A stretch of 64,000 nucleotides of DNA, taken from contig JACPNG010000009.1 of NCBI GenBank assembly GCA_016185605.1, positions 53,838 through 117,837 on the forward strand, written 5' to 3'. The stretch is from Candidatus Woesearchaeota archaeon. GTDB taxonomy: Archaea; Nanobdellota; Nanobdellia; SCGC-AAA011-G17; JACPNG01. Below the pieces are notes generated by a model that searched no databases, was not told the DNA's origin, and worked only from the letters and a program-made list of their open reading frames with translations. Shown here in pieces: positions 25,123-49,641 of the stretch (positions are counted from its first letter, which is position 1; every line of letters begins with the position of its first letter). The position numbers and the translations under genes are program-made.

Positions 25123-25661
25123 ATTTATTTAAAGTAAATAACGTTAATATAAATTTTAAAGAAATAGAGTTAGAGATAAACAAAAGAGTAAATGAGGGGG
25201 GAAAAAGATTTGATGATTATGATAATGATATACAAGATTTTGAAATTGAAAAAATAGAAGTTTCTGATAATTTAGTTAACCATTGTAATATAAAAATTCC
25301 TAGAGAGATAACTTCCCATAGACCGGTTATAGGCAATACGCTAATAAAAATAAGGCAGATACTAGATGATGAGATAAGAAGGTCTTTAGATCCTATGGTA
25401 AATAGACAGATAGAAATCAATATGAATATAGTTAATAGGTTAAATAAAATAGAAAGAATAACAGAAGAGAATGAGATAAGAACTAAGGGATTAAATAAAA
25501 CACTAGATAGAGTAGAAAGAATAACAGAAGAGAATGAGATAAGAACTAAAAGGCTAGAAAAAGTATTTGATGAGATAATTAATCAAACAAACTCTAATAT
25601 AAAAGAGATTTTTAAACTAAATCGAAAGTTAAAGGAAAAAAAATGGAAATTAGCCAGATAA
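25095..25661 (+). CDS. hypothetical coiled-coil protein with an internal 20-aa tandem duplication
   Basis: 188 aa, charged and helical. Contains IERITEENEIRTKGLNKTLD / VERITEENEIRTKRLEKVFD. Confidence 0.5.
   Translation: MGDYFKKMVDLFKVNNVNINFKEIELEINKRVNEGGKRFDDYDNDIQDFEIEKIEVSDNLVNHCNIKIPREITSHRPVIGNTLIKIRQILDDEIRRSLDPMVNRQIEINMNIVNRLNKIERITEENEIRTKGLNKTLDRVERITEENEIRTKRLEKVFDEIINQTNSNIKEIFKLNRKLKEKKWKLAR
25451..25546 (+). repeat. two 36-nt exact copies (agaaagaataacagaagagaatgagataagaactaa) spaced 60 nt apart inside a coding sequence
   Basis: Seen directly at 25451-25486 and 25511-25546. Confidence 0.8.
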
Positions 25662-27706: not shown

Positions 27707-28190
27707 CGCTCTAAGATCCTTTCAATTATTCTTGTAGTAGAAAATCCTTTTTCTACTTCGAATGTTTTATACTTGCCTCCTAATCCTTCTATAAGTTCTC
27801 TCTCATCTTTCATTCTTTTCTCATCATAAGTTCCGCCTTTTATATGTATATCTGGCTTTATTCTCCTTAAGTAATCAAGAGGGTCATCTCCATAAAAAAT
27901 TACAACATAATCAACATATCTTAAATAAGTTAGAACTTTAGCCTTCTCTTGTTGTTCAATAATAGGTCTTTTTTCTCCCCCTTATTTCGCCTAATAGAAT
28001 CATCACTATTAACTAAAACAATCAGAATATCTCCTTCACTTTTAGCCTTTGAAAGAAGATTTACATGTGCTGAGTGTAATATGTCAAAACTTCCGTTAGT
28101 AGTAACAACTATTTTTTGTTCTAATTTTAAATTTCTAGAAATTTGCTCCATTTCTTCAATTGTTTTAATTCTATCTTGTATAGCTTCCAT
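27692..28190 (-). pseudogene. HldE-domain-II/RibL-like cytidylyltransferase-fold nucleotidyltransferase with a 1-nt frameshift at an A6 run (about 27966-27972)
   Basis: The N-terminal part (86-aa ORF) has the HxGH motif [13 protein letters not shown]. Adding one A in gagaaaaaagacc restores ...[54 protein letters not shown]...STTRIIERILERYATN, which aligns with the E. coli HldE C-terminal domain. Confidence 0.6.
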
Positions 28191-28965
28191 ACTCTTTTCT
28201 TTCTATTACCTCATCTGTATAATAATCATTTAATTGAATATTCCAACTTACTTTTGATTCTATAAATGCAATATCACTAATCTTTAAAGGTTCTGAAAAT
28301 AAAATTCCATTTCTTATATCTTGGTTTACTTCTTTAAGAAATTCTATATAATTTTTGAAATTTTTATTTAATTCTATAAGATTATAGAATCTCATAAAAG
28401 TAGTGTGTATAGTTTTTGGAATATCCGGTTTTCCATCTCTTTTATCAAAATAAAAATTCTCATTTGAGAGTAGCCCTTGAGATATTTGACTACGTATATT
28501 AAAAATCTCCCCTTCATTATCTAATGGTTCATAAGTCATAATTCCCAGAGGAGATAGCACTCTTACTTTTAATGAGAATGAACTAAAATTAATTGATCTA
28601 AAAACTTCTAAATATTCTTTATAATATTGAAATTTATTCTTATCTGGTTTATAATAAAAACCATCTTTTAAACTACTATTTCTAATAATTACACATAAAG
28701 AGATATGTGTCTTATCATTTCCATAAATGAATTGGCTAGGTAGAATTTTTCTGAGTTCATAAATTAAAACATTAAAATCTTTTTGTAAACTATGTGTTCT
28801 AAATAATGGAATCCCAGCAACGATACTAATCCCAAACGGGGTTACTTTGTGATCTATAGATTTAGCAATATCTGGTGTAAATCTCCATAAGCGTCTCTCT
28901 TCCTCACTAATTCTTTTTCTATAATCAGATACTAAATTTGAATGTATTAATCTTTCCAAACTCAT
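28171..28965 (-). CDS. hypothetical protein with two H-phi-[ST]-phi motifs (2H phosphoesterase-like; low confidence)
   Basis: 264 aa. HISL at about aa 87 and HTTF at about aa 187, spaced about 100 aa apart as in LigT/CPDase 2H enzymes. Overlaps the upstream nucleotidyltransferase pseudogene by 20 nt, so it is probably in the same operon. Confidence 0.4.
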
Positions 28966-29038: not shown

Positions 29039-29449
29039 GTGGATTTTATGGAGGATATACTAAATAAGGTATTAAGTAATGATGAAATAGCTAAAAAATC
29101 TAGAGGATTAAAAAAACAAGGGAAAATCATAGTAATGGCTAATGGAAGTTTTGACCTTCTTCATATAGGTCATATAGATCTTTTAAGGCAAGCAAAAAGA
29201 AAAGGTGATATTCTTATTATTGCCATAAATAGTGATTTATCTATAAGAACTTATAAAGGGAATGATAGACCAATTATACCTGAAAAAGAGAGGGCACTTA
29301 TGCTAGCCTCTCTATTCTTTGTTGATCATGTTACTATATTTAATGAAAGTAAAGCATTAAATATTATAGAAAAGATTAAACCTGATATTTTAGTCAAGGG
29401 GATAAGGCCTGATCCAGAAAGATTAGAAGAAGAAAAAAGAATTAGTTAA
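29039..29449 (+). CDS. HldE-domain-II-like sugar-phosphate nucleotidyltransferase, copy 2; its C-terminal tail is cut off by a frame change at an A6 run
   Basis: 136 aa. MANGSFDLLHIGHIDLL (HxGH), INSDLSIRTYKGNDRPIIPEKER, DILVKGIRPDPE. Strongly similar to E. coli HldE-II (VNSDASTKRLKGDSRPV...LLVKGGDYKPEE). The missing conserved tail LFGGKIEYVKESISRSTSDIIEDIRG is encoded in the next frame right after the stop. Confidence 0.7.
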   Translation: MDFMEDILNKVLSNDEIAKKSRGLKKQGKIIVMANGSFDLLHIGHIDLLRQAKRKGDILIIAINSDLSIRTYKGNDRPIIPEKERALMLASLFFVDHVTIFNESKALNIIEKIKPDILVKGIRPDPERLEEEKRIS

Positions 29450-29960
29450 TTTATTTGGAGGCAAAATAGAATATGTCAAAGAATCTATTAGTAGATCTAC
29501 TAGTGATATAATCGAAGATATTAGGGGACAAAAATCTCGTTCTGAAGATGATAGGATTTATGATAAAATGCCAGAGGTGTCAATAAAAATATTAAGTAAT
29601 GATGAAATAGCTAAAAAATCTAGAGGATTAAAAAAACAAGGGAAAAAAGTTATAATGGTAAACGGCGTATTTGATATGCTCCATATAGGGCATATTGGTT
29701 TTTTGAGAAAAGCAAAAGAAAAAGGGGATGTTTTATTTGTGGCTGTTAATAGCAATCAATCTGTTAAATCTTACAAAGGGGAGAATAAACCAATTATACC
29801 TGAAAAAGAGAGGGTACTTATGCTAGCCTCTCTATTCTTTGTTGATCATGTTACTATATTTAATGAAAGTAAAGCATTAAATATTATAGAAAAGATTAAA
29901 CCTGATATTTTAGTCAAGGGGATAAGGCCTGATCCAGAAAGATTAGAAGAAGAAAATGTA
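29039..29960 (+). repeat. tandem segmental duplication of a nucleotidyltransferase gene (blocks about 29068-29125/29590-29647 and about 29271-29440/29801-29960 are near-identical)
   Basis: Direct comparison of the two gene copies shows long identical runs, including about 170 nt encoding PIIPEKER(A/V)LMLASLFFVDHVTIFNESKALNIIEKIKPDILVKGIRPDPERLEEE. Confidence 0.8.
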
Positions 29961-30032
29961 ACAACATCTAGTGGACAAATTATAGATAAAATAAGGGGTG
30001 TCAGTAGTGAGGGTATTAATAATAGTCAATGA
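29568..30032 (+). CDS. HldE-domain-II-like sugar-phosphate nucleotidyltransferase, copy 3 (recent tandem duplicate of copy 2)
   Basis: 154 aa. MVNGVFDMLHIGHIGFL. The stretch PIIPEKER...RLEEE is identical at nucleotide level to copy 2. Confidence 0.75.
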   Translation: MPEVSIKILSNDEIAKKSRGLKKQGKKVIMVNGVFDMLHIGHIGFLRKAKEKGDVLFVAVNSNQSVKSYKGENKPIIPEKERVLMLASLFFVDHVTIFNESKALNIIEKIKPDILVKGIRPDPERLEEENVTTSSGQIIDKIRGVSSEGINNSQ

Positions 30033-31410
30033 TTTTATCATAGAACCTTTAGGTTTAATGTCAATAATTGCAGTCCTTAAAAAGGAGAGTCATAAAGTTG
30101 AACTTCTAAAAATAAACTCCAGAAGAAAAGAATTTGGTTCTGCTAGAAATGATGAGGAGATATTTAATTTTTTGGAGAAATTTTCACCAGATTTGATATT
30201 GTATAGTACTACAACAGGCATGCATAAATTATATCTGAATATAAATAAAAAACTGAAAGAGAGATTTAATTTCATATCAGTTTTTGGCGGAATGCATGTT
30301 TCTTTCTTTCCAGACTTTATTAATGAAGAAAGTGTTGATATTATATGTATTGGTGAAGGAGAAGAAGCAATAAGTGAGTTAGTTAATAATCTGGAAAGTG
30401 GCGAAGAAATAATAAACATAAGAAATTTATGGATTAAAAAGGGCCATCAATTATATAAAAATAATTTAAGACCATTAATGGAAGATTTGGATAGTCTACC
30501 GTTTCCTGACAGAGAAATAGTCTATAGGTATGGACTCCATAAAAGAAATCCAATAAAAAACTTCATAACAACAAGGGGTTGCCCATATAAATGTTCTTAT
30601 TGTTTTAATGACGGCTTTTATAAGCTTTATAACCTAAATGGTAACAGAAGAGTTAGATCGAGAGGCGTAAATAATATAATAAGCGAAATTAATGAAGTAA
30701 AAAATAAATATAAATTAAAGTTAGTTTATTTTCAAGATGATATTATCACATTAAATGAGAACTTCAAAGAGTTAATGGAAGAATATAGAAGAGAAATTAA
30801 CATCCCTTTCCATGCACATATAAGACCAGATTTAGTTAATGATTATACAATTAAATTATTAAAAAAGGGTGGTTGTCTTAGTGTTACAATGTCTGCCGAA
30901 ACAGCCAATGACAATACAAGAAATAATATGATTAATAGAAACATGTCTAAACAGAGTATATATCTGGCTGCTAAGCTACTCCATAAATATGATATAAAAT
31001 TCAGAATAGAAAATATGTTGGGATTGCCTAATGAAACTTTAAAAGATGCATTTGATACATTAGAAATGAACATAAAATGTAAACCAACAATTGGTTGGGC
31101 ATCGATATTTCAACCATATCCTGGAACAGAATTATTTAATTATACTAGAGATAATAACTTGTTTAACGGGGAGGTTGATACTTTTAACAATTCTTTTTTT
31201 GATAACAGTGTTTTGGATATAAAAAACAAAAAAGAAGTAGAGAATCTTCAAAAACTATTTTCTATAACTGTCTCTTTTCCCTTCTTAAAGCCCATAACTA
31301 AACAGCTCATAAAACTGCCGAAAAACAATTTATTCAATTTTGTGCATGACGGATGGAAAAGTTACTGTTTTGATAATAAATTATATAAAGTAAATGGTTT
31401 TAAGAGTTAA
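29998..31410 (+). CDS. B12-binding-domain radical SAM protein (class B)
   Basis: 470 aa. The N-terminal Rossmann-like domain RVLIIVNDFIIEPLGLMSIIAVLKK is typical of the cobalamin-binding domain. CX3CX2C in TTRGCPYKCSYCFN. Confidence 0.8.
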   Translation: MSVVRVLIIVNDFIIEPLGLMSIIAVLKKESHKVELLKINSRRKEFGSARNDEEIFNFLEKFSPDLILYSTTTGMHKLYLNINKKLKERFNFISVFGGMHVSFFPDFINEESVDIICIGEGEEAISELVNNLESGEEIINIRNLWIKKGHQLYKNNLRPLMEDLDSLPFPDREIVYRYGLHKRNPIKNFITTRGCPYKCSYCFNDGFYKLYNLNGNRRVRSRGVNNIISEINEVKNKYKLKLVYFQDDIITLNENFKELMEEYRREINIPFHAHIRPDLVNDYTIKLLKKGGCLSVTMSAETANDNTRNNMINRNMSKQSIYLAAKLLHKYDIKFRIENMLGLPNETLKDAFDTLEMNIKCKPTIGWASIFQPYPGTELFNYTRDNNLFNGEVDTFNNSFFDNSVLDIKNKKEVENLQKLFSITVSFPFLKPITKQLIKLPKNNLFNFVHDGWKSYCFDNKLYKVNGFKS

Positions 31411-31413
31411 AAC

Positions 31414-32910
31414 ATGTATAATTATCTAAAAAACAAAATTTTCCCATCATTTCTATTTATATTAATCATAATCTCTCTTCTATTAGTTGGCAACTCATTA
31501 ACTGAATTTTTTACCAAAGGCGATTATGCTAAATTAGAAGAGGAAAAATATATCATATTAAATGAAGATTACAAGTGTATTGATTGTAATGTTATAATAA
31601 TTGGAATTGACACGCTAAGGGCGGATCATTTAGGCTATAATGGGTATTATAGAAATACTTCCCCGAATATAGATGAATTTTCTAATGAAGGTGTAGTTTT
31701 TAAAAATACGTTTTCTCAGGCACCCTCCACATTGCCTTCTTTTGCAACAATCTTTACTTCATTATATCCAATAATGCATAAAGCACAAATTGAAAATGGG
31801 CCTGTTGCGCTAAGTAATGAATCTAAAACTATAGCTGAAATATTAAAAGAAAACGGATATTATAATATAGCATACACTGGTGGCGGTCAAGTGGCTAAAG
31901 AATTTGGTTTAGGTCAAGGATTTAATATTTATGAAGGCAATGTATGTTATAATTATATAACTGCCCCATTAATTAAAAAAGGTGTAATTGCTGACCTTAA
32001 ATGTCTAGAAGATAGCATTGAAATCGTGATGCATAATATCAATTTAAATAAAGACAGAAAATTCTTTTTATTTTTCCATAATTATGTTACACATTATCCC
32101 CATGTTTTATCAACTAATAAATATTCTATATTTACAGATTACAATAATATAAGAGAAGAATATTCTAACATAATAACCGATCCTTTAGTAGTAAAGAATA
32201 AATTAGTGGAAGATATAAATAATGGCAAAATTAAGATGAATAATGAATTAAAAGATTATATTATTGGAAGATACGATGATACAATATATTACATGGATGA
32301 TTGGATAGGATATTTATTGGAAGAAATAAAAAAATCAGATATCATGGATAATACAATAATCATATTTCTAGGAGATCATGGCGAAGAATTTACAGAACAT
32401 GGGATGATTGGATTACATAGCCACACCCTTTATGATGAACTTTTGCATGTGCCTCTGATAATAAAATATCCAAAATCTAAACCAAAAGTTATAGATCAAC
32501 AAGTAAGATTAATTGATGTTATGCCAACAATACTAGATATATTAAATATAAGCATAAAAGAAGAATTACAGGGAGAGACACTAATACCCATAATTCAAGG
32601 TAAAGATAAGAAACTGCCAGTATTTAGCTCACTAGAGTATACGAGTGAAGGTCAACCATTAAAGATATCAATTAGAAAAGACAGCTTTAAACTGATCTAT
32701 GATCTAAAATATAAAAGAACAGAACTTTTTGATCTTTCTAAAGATAAAAATGAACTTAATAATGTAGCAAGTAAGCACAAAGCTAAAGCTAACGAGTTAA
32801 AAAAGGAATTATTGGAATGGTATGAAAACAACAAAAATTATAATATGGAGAAAGAAAAAATACATGACGCTACATTATTGGAATTGAAATCTTTAGGTTA
32901 TATAAATTAA
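31414..32910 (+). CDS. membrane-anchored sulfatase/alkaline-phosphatase-superfamily enzyme with Thr at the nucleophile position (a phosphotransferase such as LtaS/EptA is more likely than a sulfatase)
   Basis: 498 aa. N-terminal TM. Metal-binding start IIIGIDTLRADHLGYNGY. The nucleophile segment aligns as STLPSFATIFTSLYP against canonical C[ST]PSRxxxLTGR, with Thr in place of Cys/Ser and no Arg. Confidence 0.75.
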   Translation: MYNYLKNKIFPSFLFILIIISLLLVGNSLTEFFTKGDYAKLEEEKYIILNEDYKCIDCNVIIIGIDTLRADHLGYNGYYRNTSPNIDEFSNEGVVFKNTFSQAPSTLPSFATIFTSLYPIMHKAQIENGPVALSNESKTIAEILKENGYYNIAYTGGGQVAKEFGLGQGFNIYEGNVCYNYITAPLIKKGVIADLKCLEDSIEIVMHNINLNKDRKFFLFFHNYVTHYPHVLSTNKYSIFTDYNNIREEYSNIITDPLVVKNKLVEDINNGKIKMNNELKDYIIGRYDDTIYYMDDWIGYLLEEIKKSDIMDNTIIIFLGDHGEEFTEHGMIGLHSHTLYDELLHVPLIIKYPKSKPKVIDQQVRLIDVMPTILDILNISIKEELQGETLIPIIQGKDKKLPVFSSLEYTSEGQPLKISIRKDSFKLIYDLKYKRTELFDLSKDKNELNNVASKHKAKANELKKELLEWYENNKNYNMEKEKIHDATLLELKSLGYIN

Positions 32911-32997
32911 GATTTAGGAAAGGTTATTAATATAATGAATGATAGGCTATAATATTTTTTAAATTAAAATTTATTTTTAAAATATAAGAAGTGGTAA

Positions 32998-34362
32998 ATG
33001 GTCTCTATAATTGAAATTAAAAATAACTCAAGAAAAAGAAGAATTAAGATAATATTATTAATAATAGCTGTATTATTCTTTTTTAGTCCTTTTTTTATTA
33101 CATACTCAAATGAGATAAATAAACTTTTTTTTACTTTACCATATATACATCCTGGAGATGAACCACACTATTTAGCTATGACTAGTAGTATTATAAAGGA
33201 TTTTGATTTAGAAGTAAAAAATAATTATGAAAATGCTGTAGCTGGCAAAGGAGATACTGGTTTTAAATACAGATATGAAAGAATCAGTCGTCATGCAATT
33301 TTGGTAGATGGAAAAACCAATATTAGATATAATCTAGATGATATTTATAACCTAAGTGGTTCTGGATTCTCGCTAAACGGAGAATCCCCCACTATACGTG
33401 ATGATCTAGAAAATACTGATACTGCTAATTTAAAAGAACGACCTACACGTTATATAGGACTGCCTTTTTTTAGCTCTATTTTTTTATGGCCTTTTAGAAA
33501 TTCTTTAAATTTAGATTCTATTGCAATTTTATTGAGTGCTATTGTTTCTCTTATTGGCTTCTACTTTTTATATTTAGTATTAATTCATTTTAAAAATAAT
33601 GAAAATAAAGTGTTATTCATAACAATTATCTTTATTTTCACAACACAACTATGGTTTTACTCAAAAACATTTTATCCTGACCCCTATATAGCTTCTTTTT
33701 TAATTATTTCTTACTATTTTTTTATTGTTAAAAATAAAGTTGCTATCTCCGGCATTCTATTGGGCTTAGCATTCCTCATGAAATATAATATGATTATTTT
33801 CCCAGCTATATTTGCATTATACCTATTAAAAAATAAAAGGTTTAAAAAGTTTTTTCTTTTTAGTTTAACCATTGGGATTTTTGCATTTCTTCTTTTAATT
33901 TACAATTTTATAATGTGGGGGAATTTATTATTCTCTCATCTTCATTTTATGTACGGAAATATTATTTCTGGGATTTTAGGACTGCTCTTTTCATTAGATC
34001 ATGGTTTAATTATATTTACACCTCTCCTTATATTCTCATTTTTTGGCTTTTATCAATTCTATAAACAAAAAAAAGATGAAGCTATATTTACTTTCATACT
34101 TTTTTTTACATATCTATTGATAATGTCTGCATTTTTAGAATGGCATGGGGGCTTTTCTTATGCTACAAGACACTTAATTCCAATAATGCCTTTATTATCT
34201 ATCCCTCTTCTGTTTTGGTATGATTCAAATAGAAGTAAAAGCTTGAAAATGATATTTTTTATATTAGTTATTATATCTTTTATTTTTAGTTTATATTCAG
34301 TTTTTGCTGATCAAAGTTATGTTTTAGACAAACCGCCCTTATTTCCATATATAAAATTTTAG
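32998..34362 (+). CDS. GT-C-fold membrane glycosyltransferase (PMT/ArnT-like; DE motif GDEPHY in the first extracytoplasmic loop)
   Basis: 454 aa, about 11 TM helices. HPGDEPHYLAMT resembles the PMT DE(V)HF / ArnT DEARY loop-1 motif. Confidence 0.5.
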   Translation: MVSIIEIKNNSRKRRIKIILLIIAVLFFFSPFFITYSNEINKLFFTLPYIHPGDEPHYLAMTSSIIKDFDLEVKNNYENAVAGKGDTGFKYRYERISRHAILVDGKTNIRYNLDDIYNLSGSGFSLNGESPTIRDDLENTDTANLKERPTRYIGLPFFSSIFLWPFRNSLNLDSIAILLSAIVSLIGFYFLYLVLIHFKNNENKVLFITIIFIFTTQLWFYSKTFYPDPYIASFLIISYYFFIVKNKVAISGILLGLAFLMKYNMIIFPAIFALYLLKNKRFKKFFLFSLTIGIFAFLLLIYNFIMWGNLLFSHLHFMYGNIISGILGLLFSLDHGLIIFTPLLIFSFFGFYQFYKQKKDEAIFTFILFFTYLLIMSAFLEWHGGFSYATRHLIPIMPLLSIPLLFWYDSNRSKSLKMIFFILVIISFIFSLYSVFADQSYVLDKPPLFPYIKF

Positions 34363-34373
34363 CCACAAAACAT

Positions 34374-35063
34374 ATGAAATTATCAATAATTATACCAGTT
34401 TATAACGAGGAAAATACTATTGGTGAAATAATAAAGAGAGTAAAAGAAGTAAAATTTCCAATAAAGAGAGAAATTATTATTATTAATGATGGTAGTAATG
34501 ATAATACTTCTAATATACTTAAAAAAATTAGAGGAATAAATGTTATAGAATATAATAACAATATGGGAAAGGGCTTTGCTATAAAGCAGGGTATTAATAA
34601 TATTAGAGGAGATATAATAGTAATTCAAGATGCTGATCTAGAATATGATCCAAATGAAATACCCTCGTTATTAGAGCCGATAATAAAAAATGAAACGAAC
34701 ATAGTATATGGATCTAGAATGCTTAGAAAGAATAAGATATCATATTTTCATTTTTATTTAGGCAGTAAAATTTTGACATTCTTAACAAAATTATTATATG
34801 GTGTTTTAATAACTGATGTGGAAACTTGTTATAAATTATTTAAGGCGGATATAATTAAGAAAATAGATATAAAGGCCATGGGTTTTGATTTTGAATCAGA
34901 AGTAACTGCAAAACTATTAAATATGAAAGAAAAGATCATCGAACTGCCTATAAGCTATACCCCAAGAAGAATTAATGATGGGAAAAAAATAAGATTAAAA
35001 GATGGTGTGATTGCTTTGGGAGTGTTAATAAAATATAGAATAGATTACTATAACAAAAAATGA
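34374..35063 (+). CDS. GT2 glycosyltransferase (DPM1/GtrB-like polyprenol-phosphate sugar synthase)
   Basis: 229 aa. LSIIIPVYNEENTIGEII and DADLEYDP. Confidence 0.85.
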   Translation: MKLSIIIPVYNEENTIGEIIKRVKEVKFPIKREIIIINDGSNDNTSNILKKIRGINVIEYNNNMGKGFAIKQGINNIRGDIIVIQDADLEYDPNEIPSLLEPIIKNETNIVYGSRMLRKNKISYFHFYLGSKILTFLTKLLYGVLITDVETCYKLFKADIIKKIDIKAMGFDFESEVTAKLLNMKEKIIELPISYTPRRINDGKKIRLKDGVIALGVLIKYRIDYYNKK

Positions 35064-36430
35064 TAAAGAATTTAGATTCAATGAAAATTAGAATATGTTT
35101 AATTAATGTTACTAATAAAGATAAAATGGTTATGAATAAAGACCTTAATGGTGGATTCGGAACATGTGATGATTATGGGAATAGCATAACATCTAAAATA
35201 ATAAGGTTTATAAAAAGCAGAACAATAAAGCTCCCGATAATAAGTTACGCGTTTCTGCAGGCAATATTTAAACAACAAGGACATGAAGTTGAGTATTATG
35301 AAGATAACTTTCCGGATAAATCTAAAAATTTTGATTTGATTCTTATATATGGTACAATAGTTGATTTTAAAAATGAAAATATGGTGTGTATAAAACTAAA
35401 ACAAATGTTTCCTACTGCAAAGATTGGAATATTTGGACCTTTTCCATCAGTTATGCCAGAATTATTTAAAAGTGGGGATTTTGTTATAGTCGGAGAGGCA
35501 GAAGCATATTTTATGAATGATTTTAAACATTTAGATAATTTAAGAGGATATGTAAAAGTTTCATCTCAAACTAATATGGAATCCTTACCAAGTCCTTGTT
35601 ATGACGGCTTTCCGATAAATAAATATTCATATTATCCAGCCATTAGAAAAAAACCACTTCTTACTCTTCAAGCAAGTAAAGGATGTCCATATAGCTGCAG
35701 ATATTATTGTGTATATGGAAATTATCAAGGAGTTAAAATAAGACAAAGATCTCCAAGAAGAGTAGTGGAGGATATGATATATCTTAAGAAGAATTACAAT
35801 GTTAAAGGAATACAATTTAGAGATCCTACATTTGGGTTTAATAGAAATTTCATTCAGGAATTTTGCAATGAATTAAAGCATAAGAACTTAAATATAGACT
35901 GGGGGATGGAAACTAGATTGGACCTATTAAATAAAAATAATATTAAAATGATGTATGATGTCGGACTTAGAAATATAAATGTCGGGATAGAAACTATCAA
36001 TTTATATGTAGCTAAAAAAAACAGAAGAAAGTTGATAGAAACAAATCATCAAGAGGAGATAATAAAATATTGTAAGAGATTAGGTATAAATATATCAGCT
36101 TTTTTTATTATAGGATATGAAGGTGATACAAAGGAGACAATAGAAAACACAATCAAATATGCAATAAAAATCAATGCTCCATTGGCTAGATTCTCAGTAG
36201 CTACGCCATATCCTAGCACTGAATATTATGAACTTCTTGAAAAAGAAGGAAGATTATTAATAAAAGACTTTGAAAGATATAATCAGTTTACATTAGTGTA
36301 TAAGCATAAAAACTTAAATGAAGACGAAATTAGAAATTTATTAGAAAAATCCTATAGGGATTATTATTTTAGAATGTCTTACATTTTATCTCTAATAATG
36401 CGGAAAGTAAGGATGGCATCGGTTTTTTAA
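35060..36430 (+). CDS. B12-binding-domain radical SAM protein with a non-canonical CX3CX3C cluster motif
   Basis: 456 aa. Reads QASKGCPYSCRYYCVYG, i.e. gga tgt cca tat agc tgc aga tat tat tgt, in place of the usual CX3CX2C. Confidence 0.72.
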   Translation: MIKNLDSMKIRICLINVTNKDKMVMNKDLNGGFGTCDDYGNSITSKIIRFIKSRTIKLPIISYAFLQAIFKQQGHEVEYYEDNFPDKSKNFDLILIYGTIVDFKNENMVCIKLKQMFPTAKIGIFGPFPSVMPELFKSGDFVIVGEAEAYFMNDFKHLDNLRGYVKVSSQTNMESLPSPCYDGFPINKYSYYPAIRKKPLLTLQASKGCPYSCRYYCVYGNYQGVKIRQRSPRRVVEDMIYLKKNYNVKGIQFRDPTFGFNRNFIQEFCNELKHKNLNIDWGMETRLDLLNKNNIKMMYDVGLRNINVGIETINLYVAKKNRRKLIETNHQEEIIKYCKRLGINISAFFIIGYEGDTKETIENTIKYAIKINAPLARFSVATPYPSTEYYELLEKEGRLLIKDFERYNQFTLVYKHKNLNEDEIRNLLEKSYRDYYFRMSYILSLIMRKVRMASVF

Positions 36431-36480
36431 TTTTATATAACAATTATATTTAAATATATTTAATCACTCCAATTCGAGAT

Positions 36481-37482
36481 ATGATTAACATAAAAGAGTT
36501 TATATCCATAATAATTCCAGCTTATAATTCAAAAGACACAATAGAAAAATGTCTTACTTTTATATTCAAATCTAAATATAAGAATTTCGAAGTTATTGTC
36601 GTAGATGATTGCTCAACCGATAATTTATATTTAACAGCTAAAAAATTCCCATGTAAACTAATAAGATTAAAAGAAAGATTTGGACCTGCCAAAGCCAGAA
36701 ATGTCGGAGCTAGTAAGGCTAAAGGCAACATTTTAGTTTTTCTTGACTCAGATTGTATTGTCGGTGAAAATTGGTTAAATAGTATAGTTAGAAATTTCAA
36801 AGAATACAACATTGGAGCTACTGCAGCCCAATATAATGATTCAATAAGTAAAAGTTTTATAGCTAAATTTGCTTTTTATGAACTTCTCTTTAGAGAAAGA
36901 AAATTTGATAAATTCGTAAATACAATTCCTTCCTGTAATTTTGCTTGTAAAAAAGAAATTTTCGAAGAAATTAATGGGTTCTCTGAAGATTTTAGGGGTG
37001 CATCAGAAGATTTAGAGTTTTCTTATAGATTAGGAAAAATAACTAAAATATTATGGGATCCTTCTATAAGCGTAACTCATCATTCCAGAAATAAAATGAA
37101 TGAATATATCAAACAACAGTTTATTAGTAGTAGAGATGATGTTCCATTATTTATAAGACAACCAAACTTATTATTAGAAGACACATTTGAAGATAAAACT
37201 AACTATTTAGAAGTAATATCCCTGGGATTATTTCTTACATTTGTATTCTTATCTTTTTTTATGTTGATAAACCAGTATATCATATTAATGCCATTAATTT
37301 TTACATTCATATTAAATATAAATTTTATGAATTTTATAAGAATTAAAGAAAATATTATTTTTTCCATTAAATCTATATTTTTAGTCTATCTAAGAGACTT
37401 CGTATGGTTTATGGGGGCTTTAGTTGGTCTATTTAATGGAATGAGGGAATTGTTTAGTATAAAAAATGTTAAAGTACACTAA
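36481..37482 (+). CDS. GT2 glycosyltransferase with a C-terminal membrane segment
   Basis: 333 aa. [36 protein letters not shown] helices at the C-terminus. Confidence 0.8.
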   Translation: MINIKEFISIIIPAYNSKDTIEKCLTFIFKSKYKNFEVIVVDDCSTDNLYLTAKKFPCKLIRLKERFGPAKARNVGASKAKGNILVFLDSDCIVGENWLNSIVRNFKEYNIGATAAQYNDSISKSFIAKFAFYELLFRERKFDKFVNTIPSCNFACKKEIFEEINGFSEDFRGASEDLEFSYRLGKITKILWDPSISVTHHSRNKMNEYIKQQFISSRDDVPLFIRQPNLLLEDTFEDKTNYLEVISLGLFLTFVFLSFFMLINQYIILMPLIFTFILNINFMNFIRIKENIIFSIKSIFLVYLRDFVWFMGALVGLFNGMRELFSIKNVKVH

Positions 37483-38533
37483 GAGCTTAATATTTAAAAA
37501 TAATGAATGTCCTATATATTTAACATACTTTGTAACATCTAAATGTAATTTAAAATGCCAACATTGTTTCTATTGGGATTCCCTAAACAAAATAAACAAC
37601 GAGCTAAGTCTTGAAGAGATAGAAAGATTTTCTAAGAGCATTAAAAATTTATTGGTTTTATCCCTAACTGGTGGAGAACCATTTTTAAGAAGTGATTTAG
37701 ATAGAATAGTTAAGATATTATATAACAATTCTAAACCTAAGATAATTTCAATAGTTAGTAATGGGTATTTTACGGAAAGATGTTTAGAGATCACTAAAAG
37801 TATATTAGACAACTGTAGGAATATTTCACTTATAATAGAACTATCAATAGATGGTCTTGAGGAAAATCATAATCTAATAAGAATGAATAATGACTCATTT
37901 AAAAATGTTTTACAGACATTTTATAAACTTAAAAAACTGAAGAGAAAACACCCAAATCTTAATATTGGCATAATCACTACATTTAATAGTTTTAATCAGT
38001 ATAGAATGTTAGAGATAATGGGTTTTGTAAAAAAAGAGTTAAATCCTGATTCTTTTACATTATCTTTAACTAGAGGCAATCCGAAAAACATAGAAAGTAA
38101 GAGAATAGATATAGAACAATATAAGAAAGTAACAAGAATAAAGAATAAAATATTTAAAAATGGCTATAATAATTTTTACTTATCGAGTTTAAGGAATGCT
38201 AATGAAAAAGTTATAGAAGATGTCGTATATAACACTATAAAATATAACAAATTTCAAACAGAATGTTATGCTTCTTCTTTAAACGCAGTCATGTCTCCAG
38301 AAGGAGATATTTTAGGATGTGAAACTTTAAATAATAAAATAGGAAATATAAGAGATTTTGATTACGATTTCAAAAAACTATGGGCTATTGAGAAAAGAAT
38401 AAACATGTCTAAATCAATAATAAATAATAAATGCTTCTGTACTCATGAGTGCAATATTTCTGTTAATACCTTATTTAATATAAAACATTATCCAAAATTA
38501 ACCTTAAAATTAGTTGATGGTATAATAAAATGA
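37466..38533 (+). CDS. radical SAM protein with a SPASM-like C-terminal Cys cluster (anSME-like N-terminus)
   Basis: 355 aa. YLTYFVTSKCNLKCQHCFYW resembles the N-terminus of anaerobic sulfatase maturase and related SPASM enzymes. C-terminal cluster CFCTHECNISV. Confidence 0.75.
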   Translation: MLKYTKSLIFKNNECPIYLTYFVTSKCNLKCQHCFYWDSLNKINNELSLEEIERFSKSIKNLLVLSLTGGEPFLRSDLDRIVKILYNNSKPKIISIVSNGYFTERCLEITKSILDNCRNISLIIELSIDGLEENHNLIRMNNDSFKNVLQTFYKLKKLKRKHPNLNIGIITTFNSFNQYRMLEIMGFVKKELNPDSFTLSLTRGNPKNIESKRIDIEQYKKVTRIKNKIFKNGYNNFYLSSLRNANEKVIEDVVYNTIKYNKFQTECYASSLNAVMSPEGDILGCETLNNKIGNIRDFDYDFKKLWAIEKRINMSKSIINNKCFCTHECNISVNTLFNIKHYPKLTLKLVDGIIK

Positions 38534-39879
38534 AGATTTTAGTTATAGATGCAAGTTTTATAACATTAAATAATAAGTTTAAGTATGGAGATATAGTTCC
38601 ACAATTGCAGATTGGATATATCATATCTATACTAGAAGAGAATAATTATGAGAATTATTTCTTAGACTGTAAATTAATAAATGATATGGATAACTCGTTA
38701 GAAGATTACTCCAATATAGCCCCCAATATTGTTATAATATCATTTAATACATATGACTATAAATTTGCATTTAAATTAGCCAATTTCTTTAAGGACAATA
38801 ATATCATAATTGCAATAGGTCCACATCCTTCTGTATCGCCTAGCACTGTAGTTTATGAAAATTCTCCATTTGATTTTGTTTTAAGAGGAGAATGTGAGTA
38901 TGATATAATAAATTTAATAAAAAACTTAGATAATATGGAAGAATTAAAAAAGATAAAAAGTTTATATTTTAATGATAAGAAAGACTCAGAAATCTCCCTT
39001 ATAAATCAATTTGATGAATTACCATATCCAAAATACCATTCATATGACGGACAGTATTATCAGATATTACCAGTTCCATTTTTTAAAAAAGCAAAATGGG
39101 GATTTTTAAGCTCTAGTAGGGGGTGCCCTAATTTATGTACATTTTGTTCTCCTGTTCACAGGACATCTTATGGTTATAAATATAGAATTAGATCGAGTAG
39201 GGGGGTAGTAGATGAAATGGAATATTTAGTCTCAATAGGAAAAAATGTCATTGAAATTGTTGATGATAATTTCACAGTATCAAAGAAACAAGTATTTGAG
39301 ATATGTGATGAAATAAAAAAAAGAAACTTAAAAATCAAATGGACTGTTCAAGCAAAAGCAGATACACTTAATAGAGATATAATTTTTAAGATGAAAGATG
39401 CCGGATGTTTTTGTATAAGAATGGGTATAGAAACTGGATCAAATAAGTTGATTAATAATATAAAAAAATATAACGGAGACTGGAAAAATCTCGTTATTGA
39501 TGTTTTCAAGTGGGGGAAAGAAGCTAATATTATTATGAATTCTTATGTCATACTCGGCTTACCAAATGAAACCAAGGAAGATAGAGAAGAAACTGTAAAT
39601 TTACTTAAGGAAGCTAAGCCAGATTTCGTACAAGTTCATTACTTTAAACCATATCCGGGATCTAGTTTATATGAAAATATTAGTAATAAGGAGGATTTTA
39701 ATGAGTATTTATATCATTATAATTGTAGTTCTGAAGAATTCGAAGAAATAAAAAATAAGATACATAAGATAGTCTACTTTAATCCTAGATCAATAACTAA
39801 GCATCTATCTTTATTCAGTGGTTTCTATATTAAAAATCCTAAGATTTTATTAAGATTAATAAACTTCCTATTTAATTAA
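38530..39879 (+). CDS. B12-binding-domain radical SAM protein (class B)
   Basis: 449 aa. Rossmann-like N-terminus. SSSRGCPNLCTFCS carries CX3CX2C. Confidence 0.8.
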   Translation: MKILVIDASFITLNNKFKYGDIVPQLQIGYIISILEENNYENYFLDCKLINDMDNSLEDYSNIAPNIVIISFNTYDYKFAFKLANFFKDNNIIIAIGPHPSVSPSTVVYENSPFDFVLRGECEYDIINLIKNLDNMEELKKIKSLYFNDKKDSEISLINQFDELPYPKYHSYDGQYYQILPVPFFKKAKWGFLSSSRGCPNLCTFCSPVHRTSYGYKYRIRSSRGVVDEMEYLVSIGKNVIEIVDDNFTVSKKQVFEICDEIKKRNLKIKWTVQAKADTLNRDIIFKMKDAGCFCIRMGIETGSNKLINNIKKYNGDWKNLVIDVFKWGKEANIIMNSYVILGLPNETKEDREETVNLLKEAKPDFVQVHYFKPYPGSSLYENISNKEDFNEYLYHYNCSSEEFEEIKNKIHKIVYFNPRSITKHLSLFSGFYIKNPKILLRLINFLFN

Positions 39880-39880
39880 A

Positions 39881-41032
39881 ATGTTTAGAATTATCCCTAG
39901 GCAGAGTGTATCTCATTTAAAGGGACAGTTAAAGATAATGCTAAAAGAAAAAATTTCTGTGGAAAGATTTGAGAACAAATTAGCAAGTTATATTAATATA
40001 AACAATGTTGTGGCTGTTGGATCTGCTACACTGGCTTTTTATCTAATTTTAAAAAACATAAAGAAAACAAATAAGGATGAAGTTATACTATCCAGATATA
40101 ATTACTATGATTTGGCAAATGTTATTGATTATTGTGGAATGAAACCGGTTTTCATAGAAGTAGATGAGAGTTTACAGATGAATATTAGTGAAATTAAAAA
40201 TAAAATATCAAAAAATACTAGAGCTATATTAGTTACTCATTTATTCGGATTTCATTCCGATATTAAAAGTATTTTAAAAACAGCCAAAAAAAACAATATT
40301 TATGTAGTAGAAGACGGCACTCATGCCTTGGGCTCTAGTATAAATAATAAGAAAATTGGTTCTTTCGGTGATTTTGGCATGTTCAGTTTTAATAGATGGA
40401 AAATTATGGATTGTTTTGGTGGTGGGGTTATAGTATCTAATAATGATGCAATTATGAAGAATATAAGAAATGAAATCAGTAAGTACAAATATCCTAATAA
40501 AAATGAGATTCTTAGAAGAATTATTTTCAATTATGTATCTTGGATTTTAACTTTTAAATTAATCTTTAGTCTATTTATATTTCCTATTGTGTATCTTTTC
40601 AATTTGTTTAATAAAGATACTTTATTTGATTTAACTAAAGATGATTTATCAATTAAATTTTCTAATAATAAAAAGTTAAGATTCTCAGAATTACAAGCCA
40701 CTATTGGTTATAAAATGATTGATAATTTAGATTTTATAAATAAAGAAAGGGAAAATAAATACAGGAAACTAATCGCTGAAATCAAAAATAGAAATGTTAA
40801 GACTATTGAGATTAATGGTTTACAACCGATATTCTTTCCTATTATTGTAAAAAACAAGAAATTTGCTTACGATTATTTATTGAAAAACGGCATAGATACA
40901 ATAAGTAAATATTATGGATATAATTTAGATAAAAATAAAAATGTAGAGGATAACTTAATATTAATACCTGTTCATATAAATGTGAATAACTCTGATATTG
41001 ATTATATAGCTGATTGTATAAATAAAATTTAG
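39881..41032 (+). CDS. DegT/DnrJ/EryC1/StrS-family PLP-dependent sugar aminotransferase (or dehydratase)
   Basis: 383 aa. VEDGTHALGS parallels EDCAQAHG. FSFNRWKIMD is the SFxxxK PLP-lysine motif. Confidence 0.8.
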   Translation: MFRIIPRQSVSHLKGQLKIMLKEKISVERFENKLASYININNVVAVGSATLAFYLILKNIKKTNKDEVILSRYNYYDLANVIDYCGMKPVFIEVDESLQMNISEIKNKISKNTRAILVTHLFGFHSDIKSILKTAKKNNIYVVEDGTHALGSSINNKKIGSFGDFGMFSFNRWKIMDCFGGGVIVSNNDAIMKNIRNEISKYKYPNKNEILRRIIFNYVSWILTFKLIFSLFIFPIVYLFNLFNKDTLFDLTKDDLSIKFSNNKKLRFSELQATIGYKMIDNLDFINKERENKYRKLIAEIKNRNVKTIEINGLQPIFFPIIVKNKKFAYDYLLKNGIDTISKYYGYNLDKNKNVEDNLILIPVHINVNNSDIDYIADCINKI

Positions 41033-41205: not shown

Positions 41206-42882
41206 TCATTTATTAATCTTTTCAATCAAAAAATTATCCATAACCAAAACATCTATTCCTGTATTAATAAAACAATTGTATGCATTTTTTGGACTACAAA
41301 CAATAGGTTCTCCTCTAACATTAAATGAGGTATTAATTAATATTGGAATTTTACTTATTTTTTTAAATTCTTTTATCAAATTATAAAATTTAGGATTATA
41401 TCTCTCTTCAATGGTTTGTAGTCTAGCTGTATTATCAAAATGAGTTACAGCTGGGATTTTTTTACTTTTAACATCACAAACTAAGGTCATAAATGGGTCA
41501 TATTGCTTAATATTAAAATAATGATGGACCTCTTCTTTTAGAGCAGTAGGAGCAAAAGGTCTAAAATCTTCCCTATGTTTAACCTTATTATTTAATCTAT
41601 ATTTCATGTCTTTATTGGTCGGATTTGCTAATATGCTTCTATTTCCTAACGCTCTTGGACCAAACTCCATTCTTCCTTGAAACCACCCAATTATTCTATT
41701 GTTGTTTATTAGCCTAGCAACTCTTTTTAGTAGTTCTTTTTCTTCTAGTTCTTCAAATTTTATATTATTATTTATTAAGAAATCCCTTATCTCTGTATTA
41801 GAAAAACTAGGACCTAAATAAACATGTTCTATGGTCTTTCTTTTGTTTTTTAGTATAACATTATAAATATAATAAGCAACGCCTAAAGCTCCCCCGGAGT
41901 CTCCAGCAGCTGGTTGTATAAATATTTCTTTAAACTTAGTTCTTTTTAATATTTCAGTGTTAGCAACACAATTTAATGCTATACCGCCACCAATACAAAG
42001 TTTATCTAATTTAGTTTGTTCATAAACATAATCTGATATCTTAATTATAATATCTTCTAATAATTTTTGAAGGGATGCTGCTAAGTCTTTATGTTTTTGT
42101 TCTATTTTTGATTCTGGAATCCTAGATTTCCAAAATTCTTTTTCCAATTTCTCGTTAAACATCTTCAATTTATAAGAATAAGCAAAATAATCCCGATTAA
42201 GTCTATAACTGCCATCTTCATTTATATCTATTAATTTCTTTAATCTATTATAATATATCGGCTTGCCATAAGAAGCTAATCCCATTATCTTATATTCATC
42301 ATTATTAACTTTAAAACCTAAAAAAGATGTAATTGTAGAATAAAACAATCCTAAAGAATCTGGAAAATTAATTTCTTTCAATAATTTAATTTCATTATTT
42401 TTGCCATAACCATAACTTGTAGTTGTCCATTCACCAACTGCATCTAATGTTAAAATTGCCGCTTCTTTAAATGGAGATACTAAAAAAGTGGATGCTGCAT
42501 GACTCATATGATGTTTTATAAAGATAATTTTCCCATTATACTTTAGTTTCTTTCTTATTAAAGTAGGAATTCTTAATTTTTCAGTTAACCAAGAAGGCAT
42601 GGCTTTGCAAAAGCTCCAATATGATTTTGGAAATGTATCAATATAAGTTGAAATTAATCTATCAAACTTTAATATCGGCTTTTCATAAAATCCAATGTAT
42701 TCTATATCATTTATGTCAATTTTTGCCTCTTCTAAACAATATTTTATTGAATTAATTGGAAAAGAGTTATCATGCTTTTTTCTAGTAAATCTCTCTTCTT
42801 CTACTGCAGCTATTATATCATTATTTTTGATCAAGCATGCAGCTGCATCATGATAAAAACAAGATATTCCCAGTATATACAT
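41206..42882 (-). CDS. NodU/CmcH-family carbamoyltransferase
   Basis: 558 aa. MYILGISCFYHDAAACLIKNNDIIAAVEEERFTRKKHD matches the family's N-terminal consensus. Confidence 0.9.
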   Translation of the reverse strand: MYILGISCFYHDAAACLIKNNDIIAAVEEERFTRKKHDNSFPINSIKYCLEEAKIDINDIEYIGFYEKPILKFDRLISTYIDTFPKSYWSFCKAMPSWLTEKLRIPTLIRKKLKYNGKIIFIKHHMSHAASTFLVSPFKEAAILTLDAVGEWTTTSYGYGKNNEIKLLKEINFPDSLGLFYSTITSFLGFKVNNDEYKIMGLASYGKPIYYNRLKKLIDINEDGSYRLNRDYFAYSYKLKMFNEKLEKEFWKSRIPESKIEQKHKDLAASLQKLLEDIIIKISDYVYEQTKLDKLCIGGGIALNCVANTEILKRTKFKEIFIQPAAGDSGGALGVAYYIYNVILKNKRKTIEHVYLGPSFSNTEIRDFLINNNIKFEELEEKELLKRVARLINNNRIIGWFQGRMEFGPRALGNRSILANPTNKDMKYRLNNKVKHREDFRPFAPTALKEEVHHYFNIKQYDPFMTLVCDVKSKKIPAVTHFDNTARLQTIEERYNPKFYNLIKEFKKISKIPILINTSFNVRGEPIVCSPKNAYNCFINTGIDVLVMDNFLIEKINK

Positions 42883-49550: not shown

Positions 49551-49630
49551 ATAATTAAATAAAATAGAGAATAAACGATAATAAAGTTTATATATAAATA
49601 ATCAATTATAAATGGGATAAAATACAATAA

Positions 49631-49641
49631 GTTTATATATT
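49631..49641 (+). promoter_or_regulatory. candidate TATA box (gtttatatatt) about 23 nt upstream of the ATG at 49659
   Basis: aagtttatatattaaaaag sits directly upstream of the start codon. Leaderless spacing. Confidence 0.3.

Follow-up and report, generated by a model that had tools for sequence, protein, structure and literature searches.

A mosaic surface-glycan island of a woesearchaeal contig that probably encodes five sugar-tailoring radical SAM enzymes

Why are the surface-glycan genes of an archaeon interleaved with genes for five radical S-adenosylmethionine (SAM) enzymes, and what could such enzymes do there? The question was raised by a 64,000-nucleotide (nt) stretch of a Candidatus Woesearchaeota contig (JACPNG010000009.1, positions 53,838 to 117,837; hereafter the window), in which an earlier note, made from the sequence alone, had listed five radical SAM open reading frames (ORFs). 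All five (24163, 29998, 35060, 37466 and 38530, designated by their positions) were present where the note had placed them, inside a surface-glycan island of ~34 kb (window ~9 to 45 kb). Based on the Pfam and NCBIfam annotations, the island contained GT2, GT4 and GT9 glycosyltransferases, three GT-C-like membrane proteins, Wzm, Wzt with a Wzt_C domain, an RmlD-like reductase, two HldC-like nucleotidyltransferases, a DegT aminotransferase, a NodU-type carbamoyltransferase and a GDSL esterase (Table 1). The GT2 and GT-C neighbours that the note had described were confirmed, and no peptide precursor was seen. The guanine-cytosine content of the island (0.24-0.28 over window positions 9000-46000, vs 0.29-0.35 in the flanking housekeeping and surface-protein genes) fits a horizontally exchanged variable island. 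The flanks consisted of archaeal housekeeping genes (ATP-dependent DNA ligase, GatD, FtsZ and SufB/S), and neither tRNA genes nor Rfam elements were found in the window.

The clustering of the five enzymes within the glycan island is real and non-random, and relatives of these enzymes travelled with glycan-biosynthesis genes in many unrelated genomes, in agreement with the idea of the earlier note that they perform radical chemistry on a surface glycan. Judged from the sequences, radical chemistry on glycan sugars is the best reading of their role. With a probability of roughly 0.6, we consider the surface-glycan island of this DPANN archaeon to be a mosaic, with five sugar-tailoring radical SAM enzymes that each belong to their own cassette; gene content and gene associations were observed directly, and the reactions are put forward as proposals.

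The mosaic was apparent from two other Woesearchaeota loci (L049 and L052), which have a core cassette in common and differ beyond it. The core kept a fixed order, with Wzm, Wzt, a radical SAM gene, a gene for a coiled-coil protein (~160-190 aa), GT4-GT9 and HldC. After the core, L052 continued with a 29998-type gene and a carbamoyltransferase gene, and L049 with a 38530-type gene, DegT and a protein with nine transmembrane segments. The window possessed both continuations plus an extra block (31414-38533). At the cassette junction it also carried a tandem duplication of the HldC-like gene (29039-30032; 78% protein identity and 84% nucleotide identity over 300 nt between the copies), which is probably a recombination scar, as L049 and L052 have a single copy at this place. 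Locus L005 held a close variant of the cassettes called B and C below that retained a short-chain dehydrogenase/reductase (SDR) gene, in the order GT2, PMT, 35060-type radical SAM, SDR, B12-radical SAM, GT2, GT2 and 37466-type radical SAM.

On their sequences, the five genes would represent five distinct, horizontally mobile families. All five enzymes were scored against the NCBIfam models, a classification that the earlier note had proposed, and none could be placed in any curated family. Memberships in BchE, HpnJ, ladderane, PhpK, anSME, MoaA, NirJ and Tes families were rejected, as no enzyme reached their cut-offs. The non-glycan placement that the note had named as speaking against its idea was not found either, whether in BchE, HpnJ, ladderane lipid, Tes or the maturases of ribosomally synthesized and post-translationally modified peptides (RiPPs). 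ORFs 29998, 35060 and 38530 each combined a Rossmann-like N-terminal domain with a radical SAM core, as had been described, but the B12-binding domain attributed to all three gave a secure match in 29998 only, the two others scoring below the Pfam cut-off. Likewise, they are paralogous at the superfamily level but not recent paralogues, with 24-29% pairwise identity and three separate clusters. Their cluster motifs were Cx3Cx2C in 29998 (CPYKCSYC) and 38530 (CPNLCTFC), and Cx3Cx3C in 35060 (CPYSCRYYC). A second B12-radical SAM family of ~466 aa was often encoded beside 35060 homologues, and neither 29998 nor 38530 belonged to it at >=35% identity.

ORF 35060 is predicted, by analogy, to be a sugar 1,2-diol dehydratase of the AprD4 type. 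Its cluster cysteines (C209, C213 and C217) formed the Cx3Cx3C motif, which in AprD4 was reportedly recognised as non-canonical by Lv et al. in 2016. The motif was invariant, as CPxSCxxYC, across an alignment of 16 diverse homologues (A2). The sole match of 35060 by sequence in the Protein Data Bank (PDB) was AprD4 (6fd2; 100.8 bits, E 7e-28), with GCPYSCRYYC aligned to GCPYPCRFYC. The AlphaFold (AF2) model of 35060, with a predicted local distance difference test (pLDDT) score of 88, also had AprD4 6fd2 as its top fold match, over the full length (E 1.4e-27, TM-score 0.81). QCMT followed about ten E-value orders behind (E 2.7e-17), and TsrM, OxsB, CysS and TokK were behind as well. As a radical SAM enzyme, AprD4 dehydrates 1,2-diols in concert with the NADPH reductase AprD3 (PMC5461906); it retains a Rossmann-related domain yet does not bind cobalamin (PMC12931638). 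Together, AprD4 and AprD3 carry out the C3' deoxygenation of paromamine in apramycin biosynthesis. ORF 35060 resembled AprD4 in the GCPYxCRxYC signature, the equal length, the two-domain fold and the Rossmann-like N-terminal domain with a degenerate B12 signature, whereas identity over the structural alignment was only ~18%.

The neighbourhoods of 35060 homologues were compared over 39 independent genome loci, obtained from a scan with two seed patterns. An SDR of one coherent family adjoined the 35060-type gene in 25 of the 39 (adjacent, overlapping or possibly fused), mostly on the downstream side, and these partner SDRs scored 358-399 bits on their own hidden Markov model (HMM). In both archaeal and bacterial loci (L002, L004, L005, L007, L008 and L015, as well as L017, L018, L021, L022 and L023) the two genes overlapped by the same 28 nt (gap -27), a conserved junction that suggests translational coupling. 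In most relatives, the 35060-type gene is thus followed at once by one for an NAD(P)-dependent enzyme of the reductase type, as AprD4 has AprD3 as its partner, which points to diol dehydration and deoxygenation and not to methylation. Proteins with at least seven transmembrane segments were encoded within 3 kb of the 35060-type gene in 27/39 loci and a small GT2 near it in 17/39. Orthologues of the window's own GT2 34374 (40-56% identity) were found in 11 loci holding a 35060 homologue, and homologues of GT-C 32998 (26-28% identity) adjoined 35060 orthologues in L002-L004. At 50-65% identity, the family was present in Woesearchaeota, Pacearchaeota, Nanoarchaeota, CPR (candidate phyla radiation) Falkowbacteria, Chitinophagaceae, Latescibacterota, Omnitrophota and Bacteriovoracaceae, and at 30-40% identity it reached Prochlorococcus and marine alphaproteobacterial genomes.

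Several points weigh against this assignment. The SDR partner is absent from the window, where the gene after 35060 encodes a GT2; the window's only SDR, RmlD-like 14731, was rejected as the partner, with 22.8 bits on the partner HMM vs 358-399 for true partners. About a third of the related loci (e.g. L006, L012 and L025) likewise possessed the GT2, GT-C and radical SAM genes without an SDR. By curated criteria, 35060 is not a member of the AprD4 family, since the AprD4 model (NF033070, cut-off 500) gave it 119 bits, less than its HpnJ score; 38530 and 29998 obtained 70.6 and 66 bits on the AprD4 model. The Cx3Cx3C motif had served as one of the scan's two seed patterns, so that motif conservation among the 39 loci is partly circular, while the 16-sequence alignment is free of this circularity. 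The 35060 family also differed from AprD4 by its setting, with surface-glycan loci of DPANN, CPR, Bacteroidota, Latescibacterota and marine bacteria in place of aminoglycoside clusters, and by a strongly conserved N-terminal MNKDLNGGFGT. This segment, nearly invariant as MNKDLNGGFGTxDDYG (residues 25-40), had a pLDDT of 73-77 in the model. In one locus (L034:1872-3914), a 680-aa ORF apparently fused an AprD4-like radical SAM protein to an SDR, the SDR match beginning at profile position 69-83; as a frameshift in the metagenome-assembled genome is as likely as a true fusion, it was discarded as evidence.

For ORF 38530, the association was with an aminotransferase. A DegT gene lay directly downstream of the 38530-type gene in all four contexts available (the window, Woesearchaeota L049, and the bacterial L050 and L051). 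The aminotransferase of the window scored 134 bits on the LegC-like, 126 on the PseC and 102 on the ArnB model of NCBIfam, all under the cut-offs. Close relatives of 38530 were rare, with four at 66-79% identity and about seven at 37-40%. In L050 and L051, the gene order was membrane protein, radical SAM, DegT, GT2, a second SPASM/twitch-like radical SAM and PMT_2. An orthologue of the window's nine-segment membrane protein (43114; 51% identity) was encoded beside DegT in L049, and carbamoyltransferases were also present in L005, L015, L028 and L052. The fold search for 38530 separated its matches poorly (AprD4, E 1e-21, TM-score 0.75; QCMT, E 9e-20, TM-score 0.64) and, being non-discriminating, leaves the chemistry among generation of a ketone for the transaminase, DesII-like deamination and C-methylation.

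Both 35060 and 38530 had HpnJ as their top curated model (TIGR03471; 169.6 and 159.5 bits, respectively), and a genuine HpnJ from a Mycetohabitans megaplasmid was 27-29% identical to both, so that the two enzymes could also be imagined to perform an HpnJ-like ring contraction, by which an amino sugar on a lipid carrier would become a cyclitol (carbasugar) head group. The archaeal calditol and the bacteriohopanetetrol cyclitol ether offer parallels for such a product. HpnJ is, moreover, encoded beside a GT2 (HpnI), and the hpnIJK locus combines GT2, radical SAM and LPG_synthase_TM genes, the last of which was found in L050 and L051 too. Nevertheless, the two scores were far under the cut-off of 577.6 (<30% of it), hpnI, hpnK and hopanoid genes were absent from the window, and SDR and DegT partners are foreign to the HpnJ system. 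The genuine HpnJ carries a canonical Cx3Cx2C motif (CRSRCTFC), which distinguishes 35060 with its Cx3Cx3C motif from HpnJ in spite of the higher HMM score. The families in question are spread over CPR bacteria and DPANN archaea, from which, to our knowledge, no hopanoids are known. We regard ring contraction as very improbable here, and prefer AprD4-type dehydration for 35060.

ORF 29998, the only one of the three with a secure B12-binding match in Pfam, was linked to heptose genes. Its GTG start was backed by the N-termini of homologues, and its best NCBIfam model was BchE (125.5 bits, cut-off 481). Six loci, including the window, contained a close relative (>=46% identity), and all six possessed a GT9 heptosyltransferase-type gene. 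An HldC-like gene was directly upstream in four of the six, overlapping the radical SAM gene in the window, and in the two CPR-type loci L054 and L135 the full set of GmhA, PfkB kinase and HldC/HAD phosphatase genes was immediately upstream. Class-I methyltransferases accompanied the relatives of 29998 in three of the six loci, two being encoded directly downstream and one being fused (P0245). The nucleotidyltransferases of the window scored 132 bits on the rfaE_dom_II model (cut-off 181.5) vs 39-43 bits on that of glycerol-3-phosphate cytidylyltransferase (TagD), and the GT4-GT9 protein (25643) scored 59-76 bits on the heptosyltransferase II/III/I models, under their cut-offs. Against a heptose substrate, GmhA, kinase and GmhB genes are absent from the window, and in the metagenome scan none of the 45 long loci with 28-41%-identical relatives of 29998 had an HldC-like gene, which makes the heptose link specific to the subfamily.

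Loci with several such enzymes were also encountered elsewhere. Four or five B12-binding radical SAM genes apiece were found in L054, L135 and L136 (CPR-type or related metagenomic glycan loci), which also encoded class-I methyltransferases and all of a heptose-nucleotide pathway. On plasmid 1 of Lawsonia intracellularis (L138; NC_008012.1, 5984-15308), a row of genes encoded a SIS protein (GmhA-like), a B12-type radical SAM enzyme, a second radical SAM enzyme, five class-I methyltransferases, a GT2 and a HAD-IIIA protein, an arrangement analogous to that of the heptose-linked radical SAM loci; a further plasmid match, in Solidesulfovibrio, was uninformative.

The earlier note had related 29998, 35060 and 38530 to class-B methylases of the GenK, Fom3 or TsrM type and had suggested C-methylation or other radical chemistry; in the methylase version, all three would be cobalamin-dependent and add C-methyl branches to glycan sugars. 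The two-domain architecture of all three, the strong B12-binding match of 29998, the class-I methyltransferases beside its relatives and the precomputed PF02310 matches of the ~40%-identical relatives of 38530 agree with this, as does the presence of QCMT, TsrM, CysS and TokK among the top fold matches of 38530 and 35060. Sugar C-methylation has precedents in GenK, GenD1 and MoeK5 (PMC12931638). On the other side, the three proteins scored 26-115 bits on the curated methylase families (HpnR, KedN5, PhpK, TsrM-type, QCMT and RiPP C-methyltransferases), whose cut-offs are 280-700 bits. ORF 35060 had the Cx3Cx3C motif and fold of an AprD4-type enzyme, clearly its best match, with a degenerate B12 domain of sub-threshold score, and AprD4 itself is free of cobalamin (PMC12931638). 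Furthermore, the partners of 35060 (SDR) and 38530 (aminotransferase) suit keto-sugar chemistry better than methylation. For the trio as a whole the methylase assignment did not hold up and appears unlikely; among the three, C-methylation is plausible, on sequence grounds, for 29998 alone. The likeness of 29998 and 38530 to the sugar methylases GenK, GenD1, Fms7 and MoeK5 comprised the B12-type plus radical SAM architecture, the Cx3Cx2C motif and the carbohydrate pathway setting, which differs in being a primary cell-envelope glycan locus (heptose genes, Wzm/Wzt and GT-C) and not a secondary-metabolite cluster. In gentamicin biosynthesis, GenD1 acts after a transaminase, an order comparable to that of 38530 and DegT.

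The two remaining enzymes, 24163 and 37466, had been described as SPASM-type. This applied to 24163, which matched the Pfam SPASM domain. ORF 37466 had no such match but displayed a similar C-terminal cysteine pattern (C267, C285, C322, C324 and C328): a C...G..C element followed by CxCx3C was common to 37466, 24163 and their relatives, and a relative in L005 scored 20.7 bits for SPASM. The two enzymes were 26% identical to each other. For 24163, whose start codon is probably the ATG at 24169, orthologues with 66-69% identity occupied the same place in the core of L049 and L052, the Wzm-Wzt order was repeated there, and homologues of the small coiled-coil protein 25095 (31-35% identity) held the same position; 25095 itself was repetitive, with no transmembrane segment. 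Since Wzt bears a carbohydrate-binding Wzt_C domain and a small coiled-coil protein is encoded next to 24163, a role in chain termination or end modification is conceivable. The precedent for such a chain-ending function is given by terminators of the WbdD type, and the comparison is speculative. For 37466, the adjoining GT2 36481 carried three C-terminal transmembrane segments (about residues 241, 265 and 299) in a GtrB/ArnC-like architecture, and L005 showed the same order, with a GT2 (28% identical to 36481) followed by a radical SAM gene (32% identical to 37466).

The same pair was considered in relation to the sulfatase-fold protein 31414. As the earlier note had observed, a Thr occupies the formylglycine position: in the alignment to solved sulfatases, T-L-P-S-F of 31414 faced C/S-x-P-x-R, with Thr for Ser/Cys and Phe for Arg. 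These substitutions in the maturation motif argue that 24163 and 37466 are not maturases of 31414, as the note had concluded, and 37466 scored 42.9 bits on the anSME model (TIGR03942, cut-off 349). By its sequence, 31414 resembled LtaS and EptA less than it did genuine S1 sulfatases, and it is probably an extracellular phospho- or sulfo-ester transferase or hydrolase. Sulfatase-fold membrane proteins adjoined 35060 homologues in L017 and L025 as well.

The radical SAM enzymes, chiefly the SPASM/twitch pair, might instead act on proteins, peptides or membrane lipids, such as the nearby S-layer or surface proteins, the coiled-coil protein 25095 or an archaeal lipid, in which case the glycosyltransferase setting would be incidental. 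Most SPASM/twitch enzymes mature peptides or proteins, and such families gave the best NCBIfam matches (for 24163, the mycofactocin maturase with 80.9 bits, cut-off 265). In the PDB, 37466 had weak matches to SkfB, viperin and the tetraether lipid synthase Tes. The conserved 25095 follows 24163 directly, and large surface proteins are encoded at 46566-54097. However, all these scores were under the cut-offs and the matches were generic to the radical SAM core, 24163 was syntenic with Wzm/Wzt and GT4-GT9 in three loci, 37466-like genes came after GT2 genes, and lipid-synthesis genes were absent from the island. The class also has members that act on sugars: BtrN is one, and the cytosylglucuronate decarboxylase BlsE was among the weak matches. 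A protein or lipid substrate is thus judged quite unlikely, and tailoring of glycan sugars remains the preferred role for the pair.

Under this preferred reading, the genes would fall into three cassettes. Cassette A (YfhO-like protein, Wzm/Wzt, 24163, coiled-coil protein, GT4-GT9, HldC-like nucleotidyltransferase(s) and 29998) would build and export a heptose-containing polymer, and 29998 would modify an (NDP-)heptose (NDP, nucleoside diphosphate) or a heptosyl residue, with C-methylation as the likeliest reaction. From the families of its two components, the Wzm/Wzt pair can be assigned as the exporter of an ABC-transporter-dependent glycan. Cassette B (sulfatase-fold 31414, GT-C 32998, small GT2 34374 and 35060) would resemble a three-component decoration system, in which GT2 34374 would load a sugar onto polyprenyl phosphate and GT-C 32998 would attach it, outside the cell, to the glycan. 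In 35060, a [4Fe-4S] cluster bound by Cx3Cx3C would cleave SAM to yield a 5'-deoxyadenosyl radical. This radical would abstract a hydrogen next to a vicinal diol, and loss of water would leave a keto-deoxy sugar; in most relatives, the coupled SDR, absent from the window, would then reduce the ketone to a deoxy sugar. Cassette C (GT2 36481, 37466, 38530, DegT, carbamoyltransferase and the nine-segment membrane protein) would make a decoration with an amino sugar that is possibly deoxy or branched and possibly carbamoylated, for which one of its radical SAM enzymes would either provide or convert the transaminase's keto or amino intermediate.

Known three-component systems (GtrA/B/V, ArnC/ArnT, CsbB/YfhO and undP-Ribf) share with the window a GT2 gene, in the window of putative polyprenyl-phosphate type, adjoining one for a GT-C membrane transferase (pairs 34374 and 32998, 13667 and 15584, and 36481 with the nine-segment protein) and an ABC-transporter-dependent backbone. 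Cytoplasmic remodelling of polyprenyl-phosphate-linked donors is documented for an SDR epimerase and DprE1/E2 (PMC11127046). The window differs from these systems in its archaeal host and in its proposed auxiliaries, the radical SAM enzymes, for which no such role in three-component glycosylation was reported in the literature searched. Against the proposed three-component cassettes, no flippase of the GtrA, ArnE/F or MATE type was recognised among the annotated ORFs of the window, with small ORFs partly examined. Partners of the DegT and RmlD types commonly work on NDP-sugars, so that with a DegT-family partner the tailoring may take place at the nucleotide-sugar level and not on lipid-linked sugars. 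The co-occurrence of a pyridoxal phosphate (PLP)-dependent aminotransferase with a radical SAM enzyme has analogues in DesI/DesII and BtrN/BtrS, which form deoxy or amino sugars and aminocyclitols. DesII is a radical SAM precedent in deoxy-sugar formation (PMC11434129). These co-encoded pairs handle keto or amino sugars and offer a possible logic for 38530, 37466 and DegT, whereas the subfamilies of DesII and BtrN are different ones, with no significant specific similarity to the enzymes of the window. As for HpnJ, its likeness lay in the model score and the adjacent GT2, and its hopanoid context has no counterpart here.

More broadly, and only as a tentative proposal, DPANN archaea, CPR bacteria and some free-living bacteria could make deoxy, amino or branched surface-glycan sugars with a radical SAM toolkit, maybe on polyprenyl-phosphate-linked monosaccharides. 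Its members may include the AprD4-like dehydratase with or without SDR, the transaminase-paired B12-like enzyme and the heptose-linked B12 enzyme. If so, a second route would exist alongside the classical NDP-sugar 4,6-dehydratase pathways, and AprD4-type radical dehydration would be widespread in primary metabolism and not a curiosity of aminoglycosides. The 35060 family was encoded in surface-glycan loci ranging from DPANN to Prochlorococcus-like and SAR11-like genomes, and should the prediction for 35060 hold, radical sugar deoxygenation would be a common reaction of envelope glycans. The annotation "B12-binding radical SAM" in glycan loci conceals no fewer than three families that differ in their partners and presumably in function, and the loci supply testable gene pairs (radical SAM with SDR, with DegT, and with heptose nucleotidyltransferase). 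As the cell surface is the host interface of these uncultured, host-dependent organisms, variable glycan islands built from cassettes and providing unusual sugars are of biological relevance. No earlier description was found in the literature on radical SAM enzymes and heptose, B12-binding radical SAM enzymes in polysaccharide clusters, Woesearchaeota radical SAM enzymes or AprD4-like enzymes.

Table 1. Features of the glycan island with their positions in the window, strand and supporting matches. Pfam cut-offs are 32.1 bits for B12-binding, 21.5 bits for SPASM and 26.1 bits for PMT_2.
Feature	Position	Strand	Support
Small GT2	13667-14362	-	Pfam/NCBIfam
Cupin	14359-14712	-	Pfam/NCBIfam
RmlD-like reductase	14731-15582	-	Pfam/NCBIfam
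GT-C/PMT_2	15584-17437	-	PMT_2 35.7 bits
Methyltransferase	17526-18161	+	Pfam/NCBIfam
YfhO-like protein, 12 transmembrane segments	18235-20898	+	YfhO 26.2 bits (cut-off 28.5)
Wzm (ABC-2 permease)	22191-22952	+	ABC2_membrane 54 bits
Wzt (ATPase with Wzt_C carbohydrate-binding domain)	22949-24187	+	ABC_tran 84 bits, Wzt_C 105.5 bits
Radical SAM enzyme with SPASM/twitch-type C-terminal Cys cluster (ORF 24163)	24169-25122	+	Radical_SAM 66.9 bits, SPASM 26.4 bits
Small coiled-coil protein	25095-25661	+	No Pfam match; coiled-coil-like repeats
Fused GT4 and GT9 (heptosyltransferase-like) glycosyltransferase	25643-27706	+	Glycos_transf_1 86 bits, Glyco_transf_9 44 bits
HldC/RfaE-domain-II-like sugar-1-phosphate nucleotidyltransferase, truncated copy (136 aa)	29039-29449	+	CTP_transf_like
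HldC/RfaE-domain-II-like sugar-1-phosphate nucleotidyltransferase, second copy	29568-30032	+	CTP_transf_like
B12-binding-domain radical SAM enzyme, Cx3Cx2C	29998-31410	+	B12-binding 62.1 bits, Radical_SAM 75.9 bits
Membrane-anchored sulfatase-fold protein	31414-32910	+	Sulfatase 171 bits; one N-terminal transmembrane segment
GT-C-type (PMT_2) polytopic membrane glycosyltransferase	32998-34362	+	PMT_2 27.5 bits; about 7 transmembrane segments
Small soluble GT2 resembling polyprenyl-phosphate sugar synthases	34374-35063	+	Glycos_transf_2 119 bits
AprD4-like radical SAM enzyme, degenerate Rossmann N-terminal domain	35060-36430	+	Radical_SAM 57.7 bits; B12-binding 22.6 bits (below cut-off)
GT2 with three C-terminal transmembrane segments	36481-37482	+	Glycos_transf_2 113 bits
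Radical SAM enzyme with truncated SPASM/twitch-like Cys cluster	37466-38533	+	Radical_SAM 61.8 bits, Fer4_12 25.7 bits
Radical SAM enzyme, divergent Rossmann/B12-like N-terminal domain, Cx3Cx2C	38530-39879	+	Radical_SAM 71.3 bits; B12-binding 21.3 bits (below cut-off)
DegT/DnrJ/EryC1 PLP sugar aminotransferase	39881-41032	+	PF01041 177 bits
NodU/CmcH-type carbamoyltransferase	41206-42882	-	Carbam_trans_N 314 bits, Carbam_trans_C 241 bits
Membrane protein with 9 transmembrane segments, no known family	43114-44538	-	Transmembrane prediction

Concerning the other glycosyltransferases of the island, the best NCBIfam models of GT2 13667 were AglJ, ArnC, Dol-P-hexose transferases and PpgS, none at cut-off, and GT2 34374 scored 125 bits on AglJ, 72 on ArnC, 65 on Dol-P-hexose transferase and 63 on PpgS, all under the cut-offs. 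The GT-C/YfhO-like proteins 32998, 15584 and 18235 had 7-12 transmembrane segments each, and ORF 8987, like GT2 36481, carried C-terminal transmembrane segments resembling those of GtrB.

A few further genes were observed inside and around the island. A 264-aa ORF on the opposite strand (28171-28965, -), flanked by the GT4-GT9 gene and the nucleotidyltransferase duplication, had no Pfam match and no counterpart in L049 or L052. At the right edge of the island (44542-45844, -), a gene for an AbiEii-type nucleotidyltransferase toxin (236 aa) overlapped a 200-aa ORF without Pfam match, which may encode its antitoxin. Shortly beyond it (46566-54097, +) came genes for two predicted surface proteins of very large size, of which one (994 aa) combined cadherin-like with Big_9 domains and the other (960 aa) TSP3, He_PIG and Big_9 domains. 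Both may be targets of glycosylation. An FG-GAP repeat protein was encoded at 7641-8909.

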